Of a DNA stretch of 64,000 nucleotides, positions 4,983 through 55,729 are shown one piece after another (position 1 is the first letter of the stretch; every line of letters starts with the position of its first letter). Source of the DNA: a virus; IMG/VR virus record IMGVR_UViG_3300035070_002905, positions 32,001 to 96,000 of that record. One strand, given 5' to 3'. Below the pieces are notes generated by a model. The model searched no databases, was not told where the DNA came from, and saw only the letters and a list, made by a program, of their open reading frames with translations. The translations under genes and the position numbers were made by a program.

Positions 4983-5293
4983 TGAACACTATTAAAGTAT
5001 TTGGTTTTGAACACGAGGGAATGCCTAAATGTATCCTTCTATGTGAAGAGTATATAGGTGGTAAGCCTGATATAGGTACCTTCCCGATGGAACTTAAAGA
5101 GGTTCTGTCGGCTACCCTAGTGCGCGGCGGTGCGTATCTAGAGACTAAGGGCTTTAAAGAGTTCTTTGAAGAGCTGCTAGAAGAGCGTTCTCTAGGCGAC
5201 GGCTGGTATACAGACGTTAACGACGATCTCGAGCATAAGGTTCGAGCGGCTATCCAGCTATTAATTAGCGCAGTAGGAGCAGACGTATTATGA
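4982..5293 (+). CDS. Hypothetical protein
   Basis: ORF coupled to both neighbours; SD GAGG. Confidence 0.6.
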   Translation: MNTIKVFGFEHEGMPKCILLCEEYIGGKPDIGTFPMELKEVLSATLVRGGAYLETKGFKEFFEELLEERSLGDGWYTDVNDDLEHKVRAAIQLLISAVGADVL

Positions 5294-5883
5294 TTACATT
5301 AACTAAAACTGGCGGAATAATGGTCGGCCATCCTGCAGGTACTCAAATCGTTCCTGCTAATCCGCTTCCCGGCAGAGAGTACGCTATGGATTGCGGCGAG
5401 AAGGTCTTCACCATCCCTTGCGAGAGTAAGGATCCTAGTGATCCGCAGGCGTACGTGTATCTTAAACCTGAGCACTATACAGTGACCAGTCGCTATACCG
5501 AGCAGGTTGAGCGGTGGTCGGACGGCGGTCATTGGATCGAGAAGGACGGAGAGTATATGGATACTTCCGACTGCTTCAATGAGTTACGAGCTCTGGAAAG
5601 CGGCATGCAGCCGTTAATCCCGGTAGTAGCTATCCACGACAGTGACCGATTCAGCGGTTTGTTCTACAGTAAGACTGCGGCACTGGCGTACTTCAATAGA
5701 GTATTCCAGGCGCAAGGTAAGAGCGACCTAGAGTTCCTATCCAGTAGAGATATGGATTCATCTCACGGATGGGCTGGTCAGGCCACCGAGGCTGCCCAAG
5801 TACGATCTACTCGCGTACTGACCGAAGACTCGCTACGAGAAGAAGAGAACATTACGTTAATCGAACAGGGGTTTACAGCATGA
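5290..5883 (+). CDS. Hypothetical protein
   Basis: ATGA overlaps at both ends. Confidence 0.6.
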   Translation: MITLTKTGGIMVGHPAGTQIVPANPLPGREYAMDCGEKVFTIPCESKDPSDPQAYVYLKPEHYTVTSRYTEQVERWSDGGHWIEKDGEYMDTSDCFNELRALESGMQPLIPVVAIHDSDRFSGLFYSKTAALAYFNRVFQAQGKSDLEFLSSRDMDSSHGWAGQATEAAQVRSTRVLTEDSLREEENITLIEQGFTA

Positions 5884-6767
5884 AAAAACTAGGTATTATT
5901 CTAACGATCGGCATTAGCAACTCAGGTAAGACTACGTTCACGCGTGAGTTCGTTAAAGAGAACCCTATGTACACGGACATCAACCGTGACGATATGCGCG
6001 TGGCATTCTTCTGCGGCGGCGATCAGAGCGAGTATGTCAACTATAAGTTCAGCCAGGGTCGTGAGCAGATGATTACTACGGTAGCTGAGGTACGTGCACG
6101 CTGTGCTATTACTAGCGGCCAGGGCGTGATCATTAGCGATACGAATCTTAACGCTACGACGCGTGATTTCTGGAAGGCATTCGCCGAGGAACATAACGTT
6201 CCTTACGAAGAGAAGATTTTCCCAGTAGATCTGCACGTGGCGCTGGCACGTAACCGCAAGCGTCCTATCACTCTACCGCCTCGCGTAATCCGCCAGCAGT
6301 ACGTAAACTTCCGTAAGTTCATGGGACTTCCGTTCTACGAGCCTAACGAATCTCTACCGGAGGCGGTGATCTGTGATCTAGACGGTACCTTCTGTATCCA
6401 TAATGGACGTACTCCGTTCGAGTATGATAAGGTCTCTACTGATCTACCCGATCAAGACGTCTGGTTCCTACTGGATAGTCTGCGTGATGCCGGTACCGAG
6501 ATCTTATTCTTTACCGGTCGTGAAGATAAAGACGATTGTCGTAAGGATACCTTAGACTGGCTGGCAGAGCGCGGCCATGCTCCTACGGTATTCGAGATGC
6601 GAGAAAGAGGCGACTCTCGACCGGACGTGCAGGTTAAGGAGGAGTTCCTTTGGAAGCATGCAGACGATTATAACATTACGCTGGCGCTGGACGATCGCAA
6701 TCAGGTGGTCGATCTATGGCGTACTCTAGGCATTAAGTGCTGGCAAGTTTCTGAGGGCGATTTCTAA
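5880..6767 (+). CDS. pseT: Polynucleotide 5'-kinase/3'-phosphatase (T4 PseT-like)
   Basis: GISNSGKTT Walker A, INRDDMR, SDTNL, then a HAD domain with CDLDGT, TGR and LDDRNQVV. True start is probably the ATG at 5880. Confidence 0.9.
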   Translation: MKKLGIILTIGISNSGKTTFTREFVKENPMYTDINRDDMRVAFFCGGDQSEYVNYKFSQGREQMITTVAEVRARCAITSGQGVIISDTNLNATTRDFWKAFAEEHNVPYEEKIFPVDLHVALARNRKRPITLPPRVIRQQYVNFRKFMGLPFYEPNESLPEAVICDLDGTFCIHNGRTPFEYDKVSTDLPDQDVWFLLDSLRDAGTEILFFTGREDKDDCRKDTLDWLAERGHAPTVFEMRERGDSRPDVQVKEEFLWKHADDYNITLALDDRNQVVDLWRTLGIKCWQVSEGDF

Positions 6768-12673: not shown

Positions 12674-12739
12674 ATGAGACGTTCAACTAAACTACGTCAA
12701 CGTAAGCGCCTATGGGCGTTCTATCAAAACAAAAAGTAA
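12674..12739 (+). CDS. Very basic 21-aa micro-peptide
   Basis: SD TAAGGAG; MRRSTKLRQRKRLWAFYQNKK*. Confidence 0.5.
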   Translation: MRRSTKLRQRKRLWAFYQNKK

Positions 12740-12747
12740 GGTATCTT

Positions 12748-13320
12748 ATGTACAGCAAAGCGTTAACTGAAATGATGAAGGTGGCTACCGAGCACGGTCT
12801 AACGGCCGATACTCTAGTTATGACTGAAGAGATGTCTGGGGATTGGAAGAGTAAGGTAGGAGAGGCCCTTCCAGAGGACTTCGAAGGCCTGTCTCCAGAA
12901 ACCATGGGCATGCTTAAGATTATCATCCACCCTCTACCGGAGAATCATCTAGTTCTCCAGGAAAGTGAGTACGTCAAGGGCCAGGTAATCTGGGATGGCG
13001 AGAAGGCAGCCTACGCAGGTATCCCTAAGAATCCTACAGATCCTGTAGACGTTCTTAATGATATGATCTATGATAAGTTCGTCAGCTGTGCCAAGATGGA
13101 AGACGGCGAGCGAGTCGCCTTGATCGTCATCACTGAAGCCTGTAAGCCGGCCATGATGAAAGTCTGGGATAAGATCTACACTCCTTACGGCGGGTACCAG
13201 CTCCATATCGTACCTACTGAAGGCTACATCATCTCGTTCGCAGGCCAGAGTACCGATACTCTAGCGTTAATGGACATCTTGGATCCTGAAGTAGTGGAGG
13301 AACTATGCAAGCGTATATAG
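12748..13320 (+). CDS. Hypothetical protein
   Basis: Probable start MYSKA at 12748 (SD TAAGG). Confidence 0.6.
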   Translation: MYSKALTEMMKVATEHGLTADTLVMTEEMSGDWKSKVGEALPEDFEGLSPETMGMLKIIIHPLPENHLVLQESEYVKGQVIWDGEKAAYAGIPKNPTDPVDVLNDMIYDKFVSCAKMEDGERVALIVITEACKPAMMKVWDKIYTPYGGYQLHIVPTEGYIISFAGQSTDTLALMDILDPEVVEELCKRI

Positions 13321-13700
13321 ACGGAAGACTAGAACACAGCTGGAGCTGGGTGTATTTCCATGCGGCTCTTAACGATCTGATGGATGAGATACAAGACGCT
13401 CAGTACGCCGCCGGCGAGATTGATCATACCGTTCCGGGAGACCTAGTCTCTGCCGACGTAGATCAGCAGGAGGCTCCCCTCGGAATCTCCCCTGTGAATA
13501 TCCCCAACCCAGATAAAGATGATCCGGGAGAGGAGGAATTCCTTAAAGCCACCCTCTACATGTGGGAGGACGGGAGTACCTCTCGGGGAGTCCAAGGGGA
13601 GTACAACCGACGTCGCGGCTTGATCATTCTAAACGATGACGAGCAGAAACATCACGACTATGCACGTAAGTGTATGGAGGAACGTAAGGGGTCTCTATGA
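13305..13700 (+). CDS. Hypothetical acidic protein
   Basis: SD GGAGG. Confidence 0.6.
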   Translation: MQAYIDGRLEHSWSWVYFHAALNDLMDEIQDAQYAAGEIDHTVPGDLVSADVDQQEAPLGISPVNIPNPDKDDPGEEEFLKATLYMWEDGSTSRGVQGEYNRRRGLIILNDDEQKHHDYARKCMEERKGSL

Positions 13701-13915
13701 GTAAACTAGGCGCTGCTGGACATACATTCGATGTCCTTCAGGCCGGCTATGAAATCCATAAGTACCGAAAGGGTAAAATAGGTAAGAGGGCTCTAGCAGA
13801 GAATCTCTCTATTGTTGGAGCCGGAGTAGTCGGCGGTATATTTGGTGGTGTTATCGGAGGCCTTGCAGCGGGAGCTGCAGCTGGTCGTCTGGTAGACCAC
13901 CTCAAGAAGGCTTAG
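13697..13915 (+). CDS. Small glycine-zipper membrane protein
   Basis: GAGVVGGIFGGVIGGLAAGAAAG; terminator hairpin at 13904-13926. Confidence 0.6.
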   Translation: MSKLGAAGHTFDVLQAGYEIHKYRKGKIGKRALAENLSIVGAGVVGGIFGGVIGGLAAGAAAGRLVDHLKKA

Positions 13916-13942
13916 GCCTTCTTTTTCGCTTAAGGAAGAAAC

Positions 13943-14200
13943 ATGAACGAGCCAATCAACTCGTACGAAGGCTGGATGATTAATCCGGCGTACTTAACAC
14001 CAGCGCATATGGGTCAGTTCCGGCCTGCGTATAAGGAGAACAAGATGTCATTGAAAGAGAAGGCTCTACGAATCGCTAAGGGTAACGACGGCGAAGTCGA
14101 GAAGGGTGAAGCTAAGAAATTCCATAAGAATATGAAGGATATGAAAGATGACGGCAAACTTAACCGATCAGCGGAGCTTGCAGCTAAAGCGCGCAAGTGA
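13943..14200 (+). CDS. Small protein whose N-terminus copies the tape-measure N-terminal motif; internal start at 14045
   Basis: 19/29 aa identical to TMP residues 6-34; second SD TAAGGAG before the in-frame ATG at 14045. Confidence 0.7.
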   Translation: MNEPINSYEGWMINPAYLTPAHMGQFRPAYKENKMSLKEKALRIAKGNDGEVEKGEAKKFHKNMKDMKDDGKLNRSAELAAKARK

Positions 14201-15038
14201 TGCTCTAGAGAAGCAGGCGATTCTCGGTGCGGTAACTAGTTACTTCGCTCAGAATGCATATGGCGCCAAGCTAGCTCGTTCGGGTAAGTTCAAGAAGGAG
14301 ATTGCTACTTCAGCCGCCCAGGGTATCCTAGGCAAGAAGGCTCCACGGACCCTTAAGACGGTCGGTAAGGATGCCTGGTATGGAGTGGCCGCTCCGGAAG
14401 TTAACTCTATTAAGAACGAGGCCTATACCCAGGCTCAGCTCTTCCGGAGTAAACATGACGTCGGCGGGATGCTCGGTAAGCTTAGTAAGCGAGATCAGGC
14501 GGTAGCCCGTCTAGCCGCTGCAGGTGATATGGAAGGACTTAAGCGTATCGGTCAGCACAATAACCCGATCATTAAGAAGATCCAGGAGCAGAAGTCTAAG
14601 TATAACGTTCCAGATATCCCTAAGAAGACCATGAAGGAAGTCGGCAAGCTACCCGAGGGTTCTCGTGTACCGTCTAGTAATAAGGCTGCCATTGCCGCTA
14701 ACGTAGCGAGTATTCCAGTACTGGGTACCGGTACCGCCGCGCTGAACGCCGCCAAGCTGGCTGCAGGTACAGAGGCTGCCGGTAAGACTAATCTGATGCA
14801 GAAGGCTAAGGACAAGTTCGTAACGAAGCCGTTGAAGGCTAGCTTTAAGGCCGGTGAGGTAGGCAAGGAGTTTAACGCTAAGAAGTACTGGGCGGAGAGT
14901 CTATCGATGAACCCGTTCACTGCAGAGGCTAATAGGCAGGCTCATAAGGCCGGTTCTACTAGTGGCAAGAACGAAATCGTCCAGCGTGCACGTGCCGCCA
15001 AGGCAGAGGCAAAACGCATGCAGAGTATCAATAAATAG
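14148..15038 (+). CDS. Lys/Ala-rich basic protein (possible internal virion protein)
   Basis: 296-aa K/A-rich ORF; function inferred from composition only. Confidence 0.6.
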   Translation: MTANLTDQRSLQLKRASDALEKQAILGAVTSYFAQNAYGAKLARSGKFKKEIATSAAQGILGKKAPRTLKTVGKDAWYGVAAPEVNSIKNEAYTQAQLFRSKHDVGGMLGKLSKRDQAVARLAAAGDMEGLKRIGQHNNPIIKKIQEQKSKYNVPDIPKKTMKEVGKLPEGSRVPSSNKAAIAANVASIPVLGTGTAALNAAKLAAGTEAAGKTNLMQKAKDKFVTKPLKASFKAGEVGKEFNAKKYWAESLSMNPFTAEANRQAHKAGSTSGKNEIVQRARAAKAEAKRMQSINK

Positions 15039-21105: not shown

Positions 21106-22569
21106 TTATATACCGAGATGCTCTTTGATACTTGCTATATCTTTAGCTTGACGTTGGATTATCTCCCCTTGAATACCGATGAATTCCTGGTACCCTATAG
21201 TATATACGTCTTCGCCGCCGTTAACTGAGTGATGTTGTAGTCCTGCAAAGTCCACGTTGTGTCGTAGCATGGCCTCCTCTACTTGCTGAGCTATAGCTCC
21301 TATATGGTACCTAGAACCCGACCTAGAGCCGTCTTTATCTACTGCGGTTACAGTGCCATCGGCATCCGTATCCGCGTATGACTCTCGATAATCCATACGG
21401 TATTGTCTCCATTCTATATCCATGAAGAATGCTATATGATCGTCTGTTAAAGACTTAATATCAATCTTATCGCGCCTATCAGAACGATCTTGAACTGCAC
21501 CATACGCGTATGTCGTAGTACCAGTAGTACCTAGTTGTATTTGATCATTACCAGTTACAGTAGAAGCCTGACCTATAGCCGTAGTTCTCGAAAACGCATG
21601 ATTCCTATTAGCCAGGTATCCTAGAGAAGAATTATACGTTCCAGTCAGACCCTCACACGCCTGTCGACCGAAGCCGGTATTGCCCGTCCCTACTCCTACT
21701 CCATATCCTGCACGATATCCCATCAAAGTAAGGTTGCTAGAGTCTATGGCAGAAGAGTCCCCTCTATATGCCGCCTGGTATCCTACTGCCGTATTATTAA
21801 TAGCGTTACTGTTTTCCAAGACTCTAGAGCCTATTGCAACGTTGAAATCAGAAGCAGTCGTGGCATTTCCGAGGGAGTAATCCCCTACCGCAACTTGAGA
21901 GTCTCCGTCAGATCCCAGACCTGCATGATATCCTACGGCAGTCTGGTTAGCGCCGTTACTCTGGTATCCAGATTGCTTACCTATAGATACTTTATTATTA
22001 CCGGTGGCCTGTTCACCTGCCCTCCACCCAATACCTACAGATTCCTCAGAGGTCGTAGTGTTGCCTGAATAGGATCCTACCCAAACACCTCTACCTCCGT
22101 TAAGATGGTTCCCCGTCTCTGCACCTATGGCAACAGTAGAAGATGCTCCCGTAGAGTCGTGCAGAGCTAGTCTGCCTACTCCAACTGAGTAACCAGAGTC
22201 AAAAGTACTAGAGGATATATCTGCATCTTGACCTGCCTGAATACCAACGAACACCCCATTCTCCCCAGTGGATCGATATCCTGCACGATATCCCACTGCA
22301 GTCTTCTGATCCCCTGAAGTTCTATCGGATACTCCGAATAGTCCGTTGTTTACTTGCCCACCATCGGTAGCGCTATATGCCACTGGAGTAGGGTATTCAG
22401 TCGGGTCGATGTACACATAATTCCCATATAAAGCATGTCCCGGCACGCTGTTTCTATAGAGAGTCCCGGGGTTTACAGTGGAATCTACTGTTACTACTCC
22501 ACCCCAAGTTATTCCGAATGAGGAGTCCCCTTCGTCAATCATTCGGTTATTTACTTTTGTTAAAGCCAT
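21106..22569 (-). CDS. Tail fibre with YadA-head-like repeats and C-terminal intramolecular chaperone (S74-like)
   Basis: Many xAVGYxAG repeats; SDRRDKIDI cleavage motif; GAIAQQVE; terminal coiled coil. Confidence 0.85.
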   Translation of the reverse strand: MALTKVNNRMIDEGDSSFGITWGGVVTVDSTVNPGTLYRNSVPGHALYGNYVYIDPTEYPTPVAYSATDGGQVNNGLFGVSDRTSGDQKTAVGYRAGYRSTGENGVFVGIQAGQDADISSSTFDSGYSVGVGRLALHDSTGASSTVAIGAETGNHLNGGRGVWVGSYSGNTTTSEESVGIGWRAGEQATGNNKVSIGKQSGYQSNGANQTAVGYHAGLGSDGDSQVAVGDYSLGNATTASDFNVAIGSRVLENSNAINNTAVGYQAAYRGDSSAIDSSNLTLMGYRAGYGVGVGTGNTGFGRQACEGLTGTYNSSLGYLANRNHAFSRTTAIGQASTVTGNDQIQLGTTGTTTYAYGAVQDRSDRRDKIDIKSLTDDHIAFFMDIEWRQYRMDYRESYADTDADGTVTAVDKDGSRSGSRYHIGAIAQQVEEAMLRHNVDFAGLQHHSVNGGEDVYTIGYQEFIGIQGEIIQRQAKDIASIKEHLGI

Positions 22570-26494: not shown

Positions 26495-26545
26495 TTAGTC
26501 GACGGACGCGCCGTCAATCATTCTGTTATTTCCTTTTGTTAACAT
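26495..26545 (-). CDS. 16-aa mini-ORF MLTKGNNRMIDGASVD (copy of the fibre N-terminal peptide, or gene remnant)
   Basis: SD TAAGGAG; matches MALTKVNNRMID of 21106..22569; same downstream terminator. Confidence 0.6.
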   Translation of the reverse strand: MLTKGNNRMIDGASVD

Positions 26546-30727: not shown

Positions 30728-33700
30728 TTAGATTAGTTTCCAGTCTGAGGATCCGGATCCTATAGAGTTAACTACCATGTATGCATTGTTGGCTGTTACA
30801 TCTACGTATACCTGTCCGTAGTAAGTGCCGCTAAACGCAGGAGGAACTGATCCTATCTGAGCAAACGGGCCTAGATTGACGAAGGATGTTACTGTGGCAT
30901 CCTGTCTAATAGAGGTTTGACGGATACCCTTCAGTACCATATCGTTCGTACCCTCTACTAACTCTACCACGGTACCAGCTACTACTATAGATCTAATAGC
31001 TTCTACTCTATCAGAGACTACCTTATTATCAGATATATTTGCAGTCGAGGCATCTTGAACCCATATACCTGCCCTCGAGCTAGTAGGAGAGGTGACGGAG
31101 CAGTATTCGTCTACAATGTTATTTTTAACATCTATACTAGTAGAAGAGGAGTCTCCTCGAACTGATATAGGAGTAACTGAAGTGTTCCGTATGATATTAT
31201 CGGAAACCACTGCATTACCCGTCACCCATGCGTATATACCGTTCTTATCTATAGTAGATTGGAATCTACCGTCGATTATATTATTAGTGATATACGCGTT
31301 GACAGCAGACTGGTTAGACACGGATACTCCACAACCTAGGAAGGTGTTAGATACTATCGATATGTCACTTACAGGAGATCCTGAATCGATCTGTACCAGT
31401 AAGGCTCCTGCCATGGCACTAGCCCCTGCACCTCCATCGAAAGTATTTCCGCTGACAACAATGGAAGTATCCGCAACAGAACCTCGGTTCCTGAGGACTA
31501 CAAGATCCTGCTCTACGTTACCTACAAATCCATTAGCAGTTACTTGATTATCAGTTATACGCAAGACTCCCTTTCGATAAGTATTGGCGTCCCAGTCAGT
31601 GGAGTTACCTCCGGCATCTATAAAAGTACCTCTACCTACCTCTGCATAGAAGCACTGTACGATATTCCCAGATATCGTATGCTCCATACTTATAGGTTCA
31701 GTAATCTTAATAGCTGATGCACCTACCGAGTTACGGATGGTATTATCTATATAAGATATGCGGTGACCGCCTAGAGTACATCCTCCATCGATATAGTTAC
31801 CCTGGAACGTAATGTTCTCTCCATTACCATGAGTATCTACAGCTCCTACTGAAGTAGTACAGATAGAAGTACAGTTCGTAACTTGGCTGTTACGTACTAC
31901 TATAGACCCGTTAGATCCACCTCCTCCATGAGCTATTCCGTGTCGAATAGACTTAAAGAAGCTGTTAGTTAACGTCAGGTCCTGACAGTTACTTACACTA
32001 TAGCCATAATACGTGTTGTTAGGGCTAGCTAAGCGATTACTCATATCTACTACTAAGTTCGTAGAGGATACATACCTGCATCGGTCTACTAATATGGCAG
32101 CGTAATCAAAAGAGTTCGCCTTTATATCCTCCAGGTGCAATCCCATAACTCCTGCGATTCGCAACCCAAAGTCTTGAGTTAAGTTCTCTTCACAGACTAG
32201 ACTGAATCCTTTAGCCGTAAAAGAAGTACCTGTGTGTCGGTATATACGGACATCCGTAAGATCGTTATATCCGTCGTATAGAGATTCCTTACTATATACA
32301 GTATTTCCTATTACCTGATTAACCTCTAGGAACTCTCCTTTATAATAGTTATCTCTGGCAGGATTAAAGGATCCTATAGTTGCATCCCATATGATCAGTT
32401 CGTCGCCTGCGCTTATGCTAGATGCGTCTACTACGTCTATAGACCTCTCCCCTACTTCACCTACGGTAGATGCCAGAGTAGTCACCTGGGTAAGCCAGTT
32501 AGAGTCGTCCTCCCCATACCTAAACGCTGTAGTTATAGAATCTCCCGAGATGATAAATCGTACTGAGTCAGAGCCCTCTCCCTTAAAGGCACTACATGGG
32601 GTGAGGTCTATTTGAGACGTTATTTTATAGCTTCCAGGAGGAGTATAAACCGATCCTCTAGTATTAATGGCTGCCTGGATAGCTGCAGTATCATCCGTTA
32701 CACCATCGCCTACTGCACCGAAGTCCTTAACGTTTACTACATCGGCGAAACGCTGGTTAAGTGCACGAGCCTGCGTAGAGCCTACTGAAAGAATCTCTGC
32801 TGCGTTAATCGACTCAGCCGTCTGTGCCGCCGCCTGTGGAGAATCATCTACCCATTGATAGCTATTCCCATCGTTGAACCAGATGTATGTACGTCCAGAT
32901 TCTGTATCGTACCAGCGAGCATTGTCTACTGGGTTCTCTGGAGGAGTAGGCTGTACGTATGAACGTGAGTCACTTGCCTCTGAACGAATCTGTGCGATCT
33001 CGGTTAGTACGTTGTTAAGATCCTCTGTACCTAGCTCACCGTTCTGGTAGTGGCTCGACTTGATACATAGTACGTACGCCACGTTATCCGGACGAGTCTC
33101 TGCACCGCCTGCCGCTACGCCAGTACCGTTAGCTACTAGAGCTGAAGTGCCTGCTCCGGTAGGAACCTGACCGATGCCGTAAGGAGTTCCACCTACAGTA
33201 AGATCCATCTCGCCTACAGAAGAGCCTTGCTGACTACCGATTACTCGTGCCTGCATTGTACCAAAGAACTGTAGCGTAGCCACCGTCCAGTACTGATCGC
33301 TGTTAGGGTGTTGCAGACCGCCTGCGCCTAGTACACGCCAGTGACGGTGTGCAGCCAGTTCAGTCGATGCGATTGTTACCAGTGCGTTGTTCGTATTGCC
33401 TGGTACGACTGCCGAAGCGTCAAACCATACGCCACCATCGTCAGAATACTGAAGACGGATCTGGCTAGGCAGGTATTGAGCGCCTAGAGATTCTGCATTG
33501 AACAGAGTGATCGAGTTAACTGTAGTCGGAGCATCGAACGAGTAGCCGATAGACTGATCTGCGAAGTTAACCGTAGTCGTAGTCGATGTATTACCATCCC
33601 ATAGATTCTCTGTAGTACCTGGGAATGTAGTAGTCATCCAGCGGCCTAGCTCGTTGGCAATCAACTGGCTTGGAATCTGCGTAGTATCTGTACCTGCACC

Positions 33701-51673: not shown

Positions 51674-51871
51674 TTACTCCCTTACGGTGGTCTGACGCAT
51701 AACGTTACGTTGTTCCAGTAGTTCCTTCTGTCCGAAGACTCCGCCTAGCTGTGTAGGCATGAACTGCTTCTCGGAATCCGTAGCTAGATGCCTTAGACGC
51801 CCTATTGTAGATTCCACATGAACCTTAAAGATTTCAGTGGATGTCATATTAACTAGTTTAATGCTGGCCAT
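51674..51871 (-). CDS. Hypothetical protein
   Basis: Coupled ORF. Confidence 0.55.
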   Translation of the reverse strand: MASIKLVNMTSTEIFKVHVESTIGRLRHLATDSEKQFMPTQLGGVFGQKELLEQRNVMRQTTVRE

Positions 51872-54807
51872 TATCTACCTACCTTATTCTTGTAGTCCTC
51901 TGTGGACATATGCCAAGGAGTGTCCTGGCGTAAGTTACGTTCGTTCAACTGCTTCATCTGCTGAGTCAACTCGTTAGTGGCAAAGCTATTGGCTTTCACC
52001 TGGCTGGCTAGGTCTCCGCTGTTGAGTAGATTGTCGAGGTTCTTACCGATATCCTTGAAGGCCGAAGTATCAATCCCCAGGTCGTCGTCAGACTTACCTG
52101 CAGCTTTCTCTTCTTGGTACTTCATAGCGTCAGCGATAAGCTTGGCGTCAGTATCGTTGTTGCCACCGAATATACTGCTAATGGCTCCCGTATTGAAGTC
52201 ATTCTCGATTGCCCGTGCACCGCCTCTATTGTTAATGTACTCTTCGGCGTCTTCACGAGAGAACCCTAGACTAGATAGCCTCTGAAGGATATCCTCTTTG
52301 CCATTAATGTTGGCTGCACTCGCCGACTTAATACCGCCTCCGACTGTCATACCAGTAAGCGGATCGAATGTCCCAGTAGTTGTAGGCATAGTATCGCGAG
52401 TCTTACCAGCTGCCTTAGCTGCCGTACCGACTATAGCGTCTATCTCACCTCCTGCCACTACCCTACGTGCCTCTTCTTCAGATACTCCGTAACCCTTAAG
52501 GTATTGTATCTGCTCGGCTTTGGATGCTCCCGTTAGGCGGGCTTTGATCGCCTTGTTCATATCGCCAGAGTAAGTGTCCTGGTATGCGCCACGTAGTACA
52601 TCTCCGCTAACGCCACGATCACCCATACGACTAGCAATGAAGTCATCGCCTGATTTCTTAAAGGCGCTTGCTGATACCTGCTTAACCTTAGTACGTCGGA
52701 TCTCATTTTTAGCTGCACCCTCATTTACCAGTTGGTTTACTCGAGTGGTTATGCCTGCAGGATCGTCTGTACCGAATACCGCACCGCCTGACTGCTTGTT
52801 TACCTTATAGGCTAGCGTCTCGATACGATCGAGCTCTTCCTGGGTATAGCTGTCACGTCCCAGTAAGCTCATTAGCTCACGGGCGTCTTGCTGTGCCTGT
52901 CCTTCAGCCTTAGCTGACTGAGTGGTAATACCGGTAATCACCGAGGTCCACTTATCGTTAGTCGAGAAGCTGCCTCCGCTAGTAGCTCCAGTAACCGGGC
53001 TAGTATAAGTACCCTGCATTGAACCTGACTGTAAGCCGACTACATTGCCGCCAGCGTCGTAACCCTCAGCACGCGCGGTACCGGGTACGCCTAGGATCGA
53101 TGCTGTAGTACTCTCCCAAGCATCCGCTAGCCATGAACTAGCAGCCAGAGGAGCTGTGCCTATTCCTGCACCTGCACCACGTGTATTAGATCCAATCTGA
53201 CGGAACTCGTTCTGAATAGCGCCTAGACCCCAGACGCCTGCCATCGATAGCCCTTCACGACCACGACGGTTAGCCGTCTCACGACGACCAGATGCATCCG
53301 ATGCTAGAGATCGGTTAGTACGGTTAGTAGGATCCTGCTCTGCCTGATATGCCAGTACAAGCGACTGGAACTCTTGCGAGCTATAGCCGTTCTGCTGTGC
53401 CACCGTAGCCAGGTTCTCGATCTTACTAGCGTCCATGCCCGAAGCACGTGCCAGACTCTGTAGCATCTTGAGTGGACCGTTGATCATGCCGTCGCTACCT
53501 ATGAACTCACTCATATTAGCGCCTTGGTTCATGAACTGCTTACCCATGGTACCGTAAGGATCAGCCGCGAACTGTGCTCCGAATGCAGAGGTCGTACCTA
53601 CTACACTAGAGCCTGGACGCATACCGCCCATCATCATCATTTGGCCCATCGGAGAGCTCATCATACGCATGCCGCCTTGCATTACGTTCTGAGTCATCCC
53701 CTCCATACCGCCTAGAGCTGCTACCTGTCCTGCAGAGATTAACCCTGAACGACGTGCTCCTGAGAAGCCGGCGAATATGTCTGCAGCCTGTGTCTGACCG
53801 AGTATCGGTGCGACGCCGTATTGGCTGGCGATCATCTGCCCTTGGTTACCTACGGTATTCATTAGCTGGTCTACGCTGACGCCTGATGCTGCCGAGGCAG
53901 AACTCATCATACGCATGACCGTTCCCATCTGAGAGATGTTCTCAACGCCGGCTCCACGCATGCGACTCATATAGTCCACAGCTTCTTTAACGGAGTCAGT
54001 GTTAGCTAACGTCATGATAGTCTTAACGTTATCGGCCATAGCCTTAACGCCTTCGGTAATACGGTTGACGTCCATATTGCCTATGTTGTTGAACATGCCT
54101 GAAGCCATACCGTAGTCGCCGATCGCGTTGAAGTCCTCTGCGGAGAACGTGAAGTCCTCTGCACCGGCTTTAGTTAACGCGCTGGACAGCTGGGTTGCTC
54201 TAGTATTACTAATACCGTAAGCTCCTGAAGCATTAGCGCCCTGGCCTGATACGAAGGTATCGCCTAGACGGTCACGCCAGTTCTGTGCTCCCCGACGAGC
54301 CTCTACGTATGGGTCCATTACATTACGGTCTGCGAAGCTAGCAACTCCAGCTGCGGCAGCCATCGGTAGCATTGCACCGGCTACAAAGCCACCTGCTGCT
54401 CCACCTATTGCTCCCATGCCGACTCTACCGGCTATACCGCGTCCTAGGGCTGAACCGAATCGGTTAGCTCCACCGGATAGCAGTCTATCTGCACCGTACC
54501 AGGCAGCCAGTGGGATCGCACCCTTCTGCATAGCACTCATGCCTGCGTCCATCGGTGCGAACGCAATGTTAGATCTGTGTGCTCCGTAGTATTGGGAAGG
54601 ATCGTCTCGAGCCCTCCTATCATCTCCGAATGGCGTAAACGCCTCGTGCATCGAATAGCCTAAACCAAAACGGGGAGCGTACGGGTTATCCGCTTGCTCC
54701 CTCTGGTAGGCTGGTCGAAACTGAGACATATAAGCCGGCGTCATGTAGGCAGGGTCTATGTTCCATCCCTGGTACGTGCTCATCGGCGTATTGAATTGAT
54801 CAACCAT
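51871..54807 (-). CDS. Tape measure protein
   Basis: 978 aa, A/G/M-rich helical, hydrophobic Gly-rich segment; lies directly after a frameshifted chaperone pair. Confidence 0.75.
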   Translation of the reverse strand: MVDQFNTPMSTYQGWNIDPAYMTPAYMSQFRPAYQREQADNPYAPRFGLGYSMHEAFTPFGDDRRARDDPSQYYGAHRSNIAFAPMDAGMSAMQKGAIPLAAWYGADRLLSGGANRFGSALGRGIAGRVGMGAIGGAAGGFVAGAMLPMAAAAGVASFADRNVMDPYVEARRGAQNWRDRLGDTFVSGQGANASGAYGISNTRATQLSSALTKAGAEDFTFSAEDFNAIGDYGMASGMFNNIGNMDVNRITEGVKAMADNVKTIMTLANTDSVKEAVDYMSRMRGAGVENISQMGTVMRMMSSASAASGVSVDQLMNTVGNQGQMIASQYGVAPILGQTQAADIFAGFSGARRSGLISAGQVAALGGMEGMTQNVMQGGMRMMSSPMGQMMMMGGMRPGSSVVGTTSAFGAQFAADPYGTMGKQFMNQGANMSEFIGSDGMINGPLKMLQSLARASGMDASKIENLATVAQQNGYSSQEFQSLVLAYQAEQDPTNRTNRSLASDASGRRETANRRGREGLSMAGVWGLGAIQNEFRQIGSNTRGAGAGIGTAPLAASSWLADAWESTTASILGVPGTARAEGYDAGGNVVGLQSGSMQGTYTSPVTGATSGGSFSTNDKWTSVITGITTQSAKAEGQAQQDARELMSLLGRDSYTQEELDRIETLAYKVNKQSGGAVFGTDDPAGITTRVNQLVNEGAAKNEIRRTKVKQVSASAFKKSGDDFIASRMGDRGVSGDVLRGAYQDTYSGDMNKAIKARLTGASKAEQIQYLKGYGVSEEEARRVVAGGEIDAIVGTAAKAAGKTRDTMPTTTGTFDPLTGMTVGGGIKSASAANINGKEDILQRLSSLGFSREDAEEYINNRGGARAIENDFNTGAISSIFGGNNDTDAKLIADAMKYQEEKAAGKSDDDLGIDTSAFKDIGKNLDNLLNSGDLASQVKANSFATNELTQQMKQLNERNLRQDTPWHMSTEDYKNKVGR

Positions 54808-55659: not shown

Positions 55660-55729
55660 TGTGTTTCTCCTTTTAGTATGTACCTATATTTTAGGCATAA
55701 AGAAGCCCTCACGAGGAGGGCTGGATGAT

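Follow-up and report, generated by a model that had tools for sequence, protein, structure and literature searches.

A small open reading frame (ORF) in the window, the 64,000-nucleotide stretch of viral DNA analysed here (positions 32,001 to 96,000 of IMG/VR record IMGVR_UViG_3300035070_002905), encodes an 85-aa basic protein that begins with a copy of the N-terminus of a 978-aa protein, very probably the tape measure protein (TMP) of the same phage. The copy lies some 40 kb from the TMP gene, is under selection at the protein level and recurs at the head of small proteins in related phages. We tentatively interpret the 85-aa protein, with a probability of about 40%, as a late trans-acting copy of the head-proximal docking peptide of TMP that would bring a basic passenger to the same site; the interpretation leans on analogy with tails of solved structure. 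Positions of the features are collected in Table 1.

Table 1. Features of the two loci in the window and of related loci, with the observations on which each assignment rests.
Feature	Position	Strand	Basis
TAAAATA-G-GTA, late-type promoter-like motif	13774..13784	+	Within the 72-aa ORF, 169 nt before the small ORF; conserved in L004
Terminator-like hairpin	13904..13923	+	Between the 72-aa gene and the small gene; pattern scan
Small basic protein, 85 aa, pI 9.6	13943..14200	+	TMP-like N-terminal motif fused in frame to ORF2-type basic domain
Motif-coding segment, residues 2-33 of the 85-aa protein	13946..14041	+	BLASTP, codon comparison and profile
Internal Shine-Dalgarno TAAGGAG and in-frame ATG 14045	14032..14047	+	Sequence; homologous Shine-Dalgarno and ATG in L005
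Lys/Ala-rich helical protein, 296 aa, pI 10.2	14148..15038	+	Homologue of Arash gp100
TMP, 978 aa (very probable)	51871..54807	-	TAC-fold gene two genes upstream, Pfam matches in relatives, virion homologue Arash gp4, synteny
TMP N-terminal motif, residues 6-37	54697..54792	-	Most conserved 30-residue block of the TMP family
Conserved helical protein, 105 aa	54800..55117	-	Stop overlaps TMP start; homologues Arash gp3, D69 0003
Tail assembly chaperone (TAC), 174 aa	55135..55659	-	Fold match to HK97 2ob9 and YqbN 3klu
TAAAATA, promoter-like motif	55687..55693	-	34 nt upstream of the TAC-TMP operon
Back-to-back TAAAATA spacers	L016 3222-3285 (D69 53721-53784); L005 396-455; L020 3950-4001; L022 469-528		
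Motif mini-proteins P0049 (45 aa), P0097 (47 aa), P0020 (52 aa), P0130 (55 aa)			
Motif mini-proteins L005 ORF (57 aa), P0001 (84 aa, window type), P0067 (101 aa), P0094 (108 aa)			

The small protein and the tape measure protein

When the two proteins were compared by BLASTP, residues 2-34 of the 85-aa protein aligned without gaps to residues 6-38 of the 978-aa protein, with 19 of 33 positions identical, 28 of 33 similar and an E-value of 2e-13. A gapless match with 19 identities had been described in the sequence-only reading of the window, and it held over this extended alignment. The motif-coding segment and its counterpart in the TMP gene are identical at 61 of 96 nucleotides. An independent recount over the 32 aligned codons gave 19 identical residues, 17 of them with a synonymous choice; 14 of these 17 use different codons, exactly as had been claimed. 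Because so many codons differ, the similarity has been kept at the protein level and does not come from a recent DNA copy.

The 172,110-bp virus record that contains the window, estimated to be 95% complete, carries just two copies of the motif according to a search of the whole record: one in the 85-aa ORF and one in TMP. In a profile search of the phage's own genome the 85-aa protein scored 83.6 bits to the motif profile. The ORF has a ribosome-binding site of its own, AAGGA, located 6 nt upstream of the start at 13943. The 85-aa protein had no family match in Pfam, PHROGs or Atlas, a megablast of its locus against phage records gave no match, and its sequence shows neither a signal peptide nor a membrane segment. 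Its predicted model is disordered (pLDDT 0.43, Atlas), as would be expected of a docking peptide modelled alone. The closest orthologue, the 84-aa protein P0001 from Logan contig L004, is 93% identical.

That the 978-aa protein is the TMP had been proposed from its sequence, and the proposal is backed by a gene with the fold of a tail assembly chaperone (TAC) two genes upstream, the chaperone-adjacent position expected of a TMP gene, as well as by Pfam matches in relatives. The AF2 model of the 174-aa product of the upstream gene has a pLDDT above 90 for residues 49-174, and its best Foldseek match was the HK97 tail assembly chaperone 2ob9 (probability 0.97). In a comparison with 48,161 chains by VIA-align, the two best matches were both tail assembly chaperones, 2ob9 with Z 7.2 (91 residues, rmsd 3.3) and YqbN 3klu with Z 6.4, the third match having Z 4.4. 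The TAC fold is preceded by an acidic disordered N-terminal extension of ∼48 residues, and the protein ends in an invariant ENF.

No Pfam or PHROG match was observed for the 978-aa protein of the window itself. Two of the 18 members of its family match Pfam, one of them PF10145 PhageMin_Tail (2.3e-5) and the other PF20155 TMP_3 (1.3e-3). No PHROG match was found for the family, a search of PDB sequences with the TMP profile gave matches at chance level only, and a search for related loci with the single TMP sequence found nothing.

Gene order gave a further line of evidence. The conserved order starts with the large terminase (TerL), followed by genes for proteins of ∼175 aa and ∼105 aa, the large protein, and proteins of ∼70, ∼470 and ∼230 aa; then come a large cell-wall hydrolase, a sigma-like gene and baseplate-like genes. 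This order is common to Salmonella phage Arash, Vibrio phages D69, D181 and D148 and several metagenomic contigs. Virions of Arash contain its TMP homologue, gp4 (1097 aa), and have a tail of 140 nm (PMC10585845), which gives ∼0.13 nm of tail per residue. With 1952 spectra gp4 was the second most detected virion protein of Arash, above the major capsid protein (PMC10585845, Table 2); this is surprisingly many spectra for a protein that should number 3-6 copies per particle.

Upstream of the TMP start at 54807, at a distance of 7 nt, there is a GAGGA, and the start itself overlaps the stop codon of the gene before it. The public IMG/VR call of TMP, P0003, is an 848-aa protein that starts at an internal Met and omits 130 N-terminal residues, the motif included. 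We favour the start at 54807, with a product of 978 aa, because homologues align from residue 1 and because of the GAGGA site and the stop overlap. The overlap between the 105-aa gene and TMP is a candidate case of translational coupling, and the 105-aa protein is a candidate second chaperone.

A family of small proteins with the motif

The motif, with the core TPAYMxxFRPAY, was present at or near the N-terminus of 17 TMP homologues. These are 27-36% identical apart from the two closest, namely the window's own gene call and the 76%-identical protein of L004. In the 18-sequence alignment the most conserved block of TMP is a 30-residue segment starting at residue 5, with a mean column conservation of 0.69. 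We used a 38-position profile of the motif in a search of 1.84 billion representative proteins and obtained 158 clusters at E <= 1e-3, with nearly all matches falling in the first 70 residues of the protein; given this number and this N-terminal placement, the similarity is far beyond chance. Among the 150 clusters listed, 124 have lengths of 800-1370 aa with the match in the first ∼70 residues. Some of the short matches come from TMP genes truncated where a contig stops.

At least eight of the clusters consist of complete proteins of 45-108 aa with the motif at their own N-terminus, to which gene 0071 of Vibrio phage D69 (VPHD69_0071) is to be added, an annotated 55-aa motif gene situated 51 kb from the TMP gene. 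An N-terminal motif copy in a stand-alone ORF of ∼110 aa or less, away from the TMP gene, was found for the window ORF, P0001, P0020, P0049, P0097, P0130, P0067, P0094, the L005 ORF and D69 0071. Database-wide E-values ranged from 1.7e-15 to 5.6e-5 for P0049, P0097, P0020, P0130, P0067, P0094, the L005 ORF and D69 0071. P0094 is encoded in a complete genome of 148.9 kb (G005). The mini-gene loci were away from the TMP genes in all cases examined. Thus the profile search of the genome and its relatives, which the sequence-only reading had named as a check, found the motif kept in small proteins of related phages and neither absent nor degenerate.

In the usual architecture the motif (net charge -3 to +1) is followed by a Lys/Arg-rich tail (+4 to +7), and the pI of the protein is 9.1-10.3. 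Exceptions are P0067, with a Gly-rich hydrophobic segment, and P0094, with an unrelated tail of 78 residues. The motif is attached to at least four kinds of tail. The view of the motif as a portable element fits these data well: across lineages it was joined to a short basic helix, to the ORF2-like domain seen in the window, to the Gly-rich segment of P0067 and to the unrelated tail of P0094. It begins at residues 2-5, and no hydrophobic N-terminal segment was seen among the small family members.

The mini-gene was not found in Arash, nor in six of the seven complete IMG/VR relatives. Because of these absences we consider it an accessory rather than a core gene, dispensable for tail assembly. 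Each small motif shares more positions with TMP motifs (12-20 of 27) than with the rest of the small motifs (9-15 of 27), a pattern that a single TMP-type binding surface acting on all of them would be expected to produce. A comparison of the small motif with the TMP motif of the same genome, possible for four pairs, gave no clear signal of co-variation.

A Shine-Dalgarno sequence (TAAGGAG) and an in-frame ATG at 14045, just after the motif, had been pointed out earlier, together with the idea of two products, one with the motif and one without it. Both elements are in place: TAAGGAG occupies 14032-14038, 6 nt before the ATG, and the putative short form would have 51 aa. The relative L005 supports the idea of two products, as the ORF that corresponds to the 14045 start is a separate gene there. 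In L005 a 57-aa ORF, made of the motif and a basic tail, ends in TAATG and so overlaps the start of a separate 67-aa gene, P0002, whose product is homologous to the 85-aa protein of the window from Met35 onward. Comparison of the two DNA sequences showed that the window lineage is without ∼66 nt present in L005, comprising the basic tail and the stop codon, and that it has kept the second gene's ATG and ribosome-binding site. As the two genes are separate and overlapping in L005, we read the window ORF as a fusion of the motif ORF with the next small gene. A deletion of ∼66 nt in the window lineage would have joined the two, and the starts at 13943 and 14045 may now yield a tagged and an untagged form.

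Sequences upstream of the genes suggest the time of expression. Within the window, TerL, the TAC-TMP operon and the tail-spike genes on the - strand all have TAAAATA, with GTA after it, in front of them. The position of TAAAATA before virion genes leads us to read it as a probable late promoter. The same TAAAATA is located 12-45 nt before the mini-gene start in five lineages (D69, L005, L020, L022 and L024), the distance in L024 being 12 nt to the start codon. The mini-gene of D69, L005, L020 and L022 points away from a neighbouring homologue of the window's 296-aa gene, and the spacer of 50-62 nt between them contains two back-to-back TAAAATA. In the 7-kb D69 locus, L005 and L022 this pair accounts for all copies of TAAAATA on either strand. 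The spacer appears as a compact bidirectional element, late-promoter-like and conserved in four lineages. The mini-gene of the window has no TAAAATA directly upstream; the nearest copy is 169 nt away in a coding region, with the hairpin in between.

The mini-gene family is thus likely to be composed of late genes, as far as promoter motifs can tell. The late-type promoter motifs before the mini-gene in relatives and the lack of a signal peptide argue against an early role or a role in periplasmic exclusion, and fit a role in tail assembly or in the virion. The phage of the window is probably lytic.

Possible functions of the copied motif

It is known from solved structures of long tails that the TMP C-terminus is at the tail tip and the N-terminus is head-proximal. 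In 80alpha the tail completion protein, which touches the DNA end, is joined in a beta-sheet by residues 1-37 of the three TMP copies (PMC11661146), and in T5 the head-proximal part of the lumen is filled by the TMP N-terminus (PMC11784142). In these two phages, as in our model, the first ∼37 residues dock head-proximally in the tail lumen, next to the DNA end, with the partner offering a basic face to the DNA (PMC11661146, PMC11784142). The likeness has its bounds: both are siphophages, their TMP N-termini have no sequence relation to the motif described here, and no trans-acting copy of a TMP N-terminus has been described for them. Since the motif occupies the same place in TMP as the docking segments of solved tails and is the most conserved part of the protein, we read it as a probable docking peptide for a conserved phage component.

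By analogy, the TMP N-terminus of the window's phage would be located in the head-proximal tail lumen, held by a neck or tail-completion component beside the DNA end. Through the common motif the mini-protein would bind to this conserved phage site too, or would assemble together with the TMP N-termini; its basic tail would face the DNA or the acidic wall of the lumen. It is in this sense that we infer the docking site, the incorporation of the mini-protein into the virion and the role of its basic tail. Arash is the only relative with virion proteomics, and it is a phage without the mini-gene.

To our knowledge, the anchoring of TMP at its head-proximal end is poorly understood, the first structure dating from 2024, and the same can be said of what lies between TMP and the DNA and of whether phages place extra proteins there. 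The family described here offers a natural experiment, in which a TMP end of ∼30 residues is carried by small proteins with differing tails in some lineages only. Cultivable phages are at hand on both sides: Vibrio D69, D181 and D148 have the mini-gene, Salmonella Arash is without it. The clade, 150-190-kb myophages that package an RNA polymerase, is little studied. No description of a small protein copying the TMP N-terminus was found in the literature searched.

A terminal docking or loading peptide common to several proteins is already known as a principle; its version with a TMP N-terminus appears to be new. The T4 internal proteins IPI, IPII, IPIII and Alt share an N-terminal capsid targeting sequence; they are small basic proteins ejected with the DNA. 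As in the present case, a short N-terminal peptide is common to several proteins and the passengers are small and basic; however, in T4 the tag directs proteins to the prohead core and is removed by the prohead protease, whereas the tag described here is shared with TMP only; the likeness is one of function alone. In the contractile injection systems PVC and Afp a disordered N-terminal leader directs cargo into the tube lumen. Unlike the mini-proteins, these systems have a dedicated AAA ATPase and leaders that are not copies of a TMP end, and the particle considered here is a DNA phage. CpmB of SaPI1 mimics the C-terminus of the 80alpha scaffolding protein and binds the same structural partner in assembly. 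That protein is encoded by a satellite, hijacks a helper and acts on the capsid, in contrast to the copy described here, which is phage-encoded and tail-related.

Tail completion proteins of the lambda gpZ/80alpha gp51 type are folded proteins of roughly 130-190 aa in which a beta-hairpin pairs with TMP N-termini. We considered and rejected the possibility that the mini-proteins belong to this type: they have 45-108 aa, are predicted to be disordered and have no family match. Both could act at the same site.

One could go further and regard the motif as a loading tag for the lumen of the tail or neck, whose bearers would be captured beside the TMP N-termini, kept in the space between TMP and the end of the DNA, and ejected ahead of the genome. 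We consider this stronger proposal possible, if somewhat unlikely. If it were true, a DNA phage would for the first time be seen to carry natural passengers in its tail lumen, the mini-proteins would be a counterpart of the capsid-targeted internal proteins of T4 and of the cargo leaders of contractile injection systems, and the tag would be usable for loading foreign proteins into phage tails.

Alternatively, the mini-protein may be a soluble competitor or assembly regulator that stays out of the particle and transiently fills the site for the TMP N-terminus on a chaperone, terminator or completion protein. Its effect would be to time capping, or to hold the partner in solution for as long as it takes a tube to reach full length and expose the end of TMP. 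The evidence of the motif, its conservation and the late promoters applies to such a regulator just as it does to a docking copy, and candidate partners, TAC and the second small conserved protein, are encoded directly upstream of TMP. Still, no observation points specifically to competition, which also leaves the conserved basic tail without explanation, and many relatives that have this TMP motif do not carry the gene. We find this explanation doubtful.

The patchy accessory distribution of the gene and the faster divergence of the small motif compared with the TMP motif are typical of counter-defence genes, and raise the possibility of a decoy: the mini-protein could soak up a host sensor or inhibitor of the TMP N-terminus, or block the TMPs of related incoming phages. 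Co-expression with TMP would suit a sensor triggered by newly made TMP. On the other hand, no defence system is known to sense the motif and the basic tail is again unexplained. As to exclusion, the mini-protein has neither a signal peptide nor a membrane segment and so cannot encounter, in the periplasm, the TMP of an incoming phage, and the late promoter motif is a poor fit to superinfection exclusion. Taken together, a decoy or exclusion role is distinctly unlikely.

It could also be supposed that the motif binds a conserved host factor needed by TMP after ejection, and that the mini-protein pre-loads or modulates this factor. The motif is extremely conserved among phages that infect Salmonella, Vibrio and marine hosts and have an overall TMP identity of only 21-32%, which is in line with this supposition. 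However, TMP N-termini leave the tail last, in solved tails they contact phage proteins (PMC11661146, PMC11784142), and the motif has no likeness to a curated family (Pfam, PHROG) or to a known host-binding motif; such a role is quite improbable.

Finally, short N-terminal fragments of structural genes do occur in the genome, e.g. the 16-codon ORF 26495-26545, yet the comparative data effectively refute the idea that the small gene is a functionless relic, left when the 5′-end of the TMP gene was partially duplicated, as synonymous sites are scrambled with the protein sequence kept, intact ORFs with ribosome-binding sites are present in at least nine lineages, and the architecture of motif plus basic tail is conserved.

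Neighbouring genes and local variation

The 85-aa ORF runs, at its end, into the 296-aa ORF, which lies in the +1 frame and whose start may in fact be TTG at 14178; the public call has 286 aa and homologues agree with it. The homologue in Arash, gp100, was detected in the virion proteome with 98.8% coverage and 471 spectra (PMC10585845). For the 296-aa protein itself, AF2 gave an all-helical model that is unreliable (pLDDT 50); an Atlas search with this protein gave nothing above 0.86.

A homologue of the 296-aa gene, or a short relative of it, adjoins the mini-gene in seven of nine lineages, in three arrangements. We considered whether the mini-protein serves as an adaptor for the 296-aa protein and downgraded this candidate role: the family of the 296-aa protein exists without the mini-gene in Arash, G001 and G006, the reverse is seen in G005, and the adjacency of the two genes belongs to a longer collinear block. 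A complex prediction from the alignments of the small protein and the 296-aa protein had a score of 0.00, which gives no verdict either way.

Fusion of the 85-aa and 296-aa products by +1 frameshifting was considered as well and rejected; AAG-TGA offers no slippery site, and the resemblance that, with the overlap, had suggested it is not significant (E 0.2). This resemblance links the last residues of the 85-aa ORF, and of P0067, to the N-terminus of 296-aa homologues in other phages, with 7 of 10 residues identical. Possibly it dates from the rearrangement by which the 85-aa and 296-aa genes came to point in the same direction.

The 16-codon ORF 26495-26545, on the - strand, resembles the first 15 residues of the product of the fibre gene 21106-22569; its translation was checked. 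With it, a second mini-ORF of this genome copies the N-terminus of a structural protein.

Just upstream of the small gene, a 72-aa protein is encoded (13697-13915, +) whose C-terminal half is hydrophobic and Gly-zipper-like; no similarity was observed between this protein and the Gly-rich segment of P0067. In L004 a 541-aa gene (5090-6715) takes the place of the 296-aa ORF, and the 202-aa gene of the window (12712-13320) is absent from the contig. From these two differences we conclude that the region is variable between close relatives.
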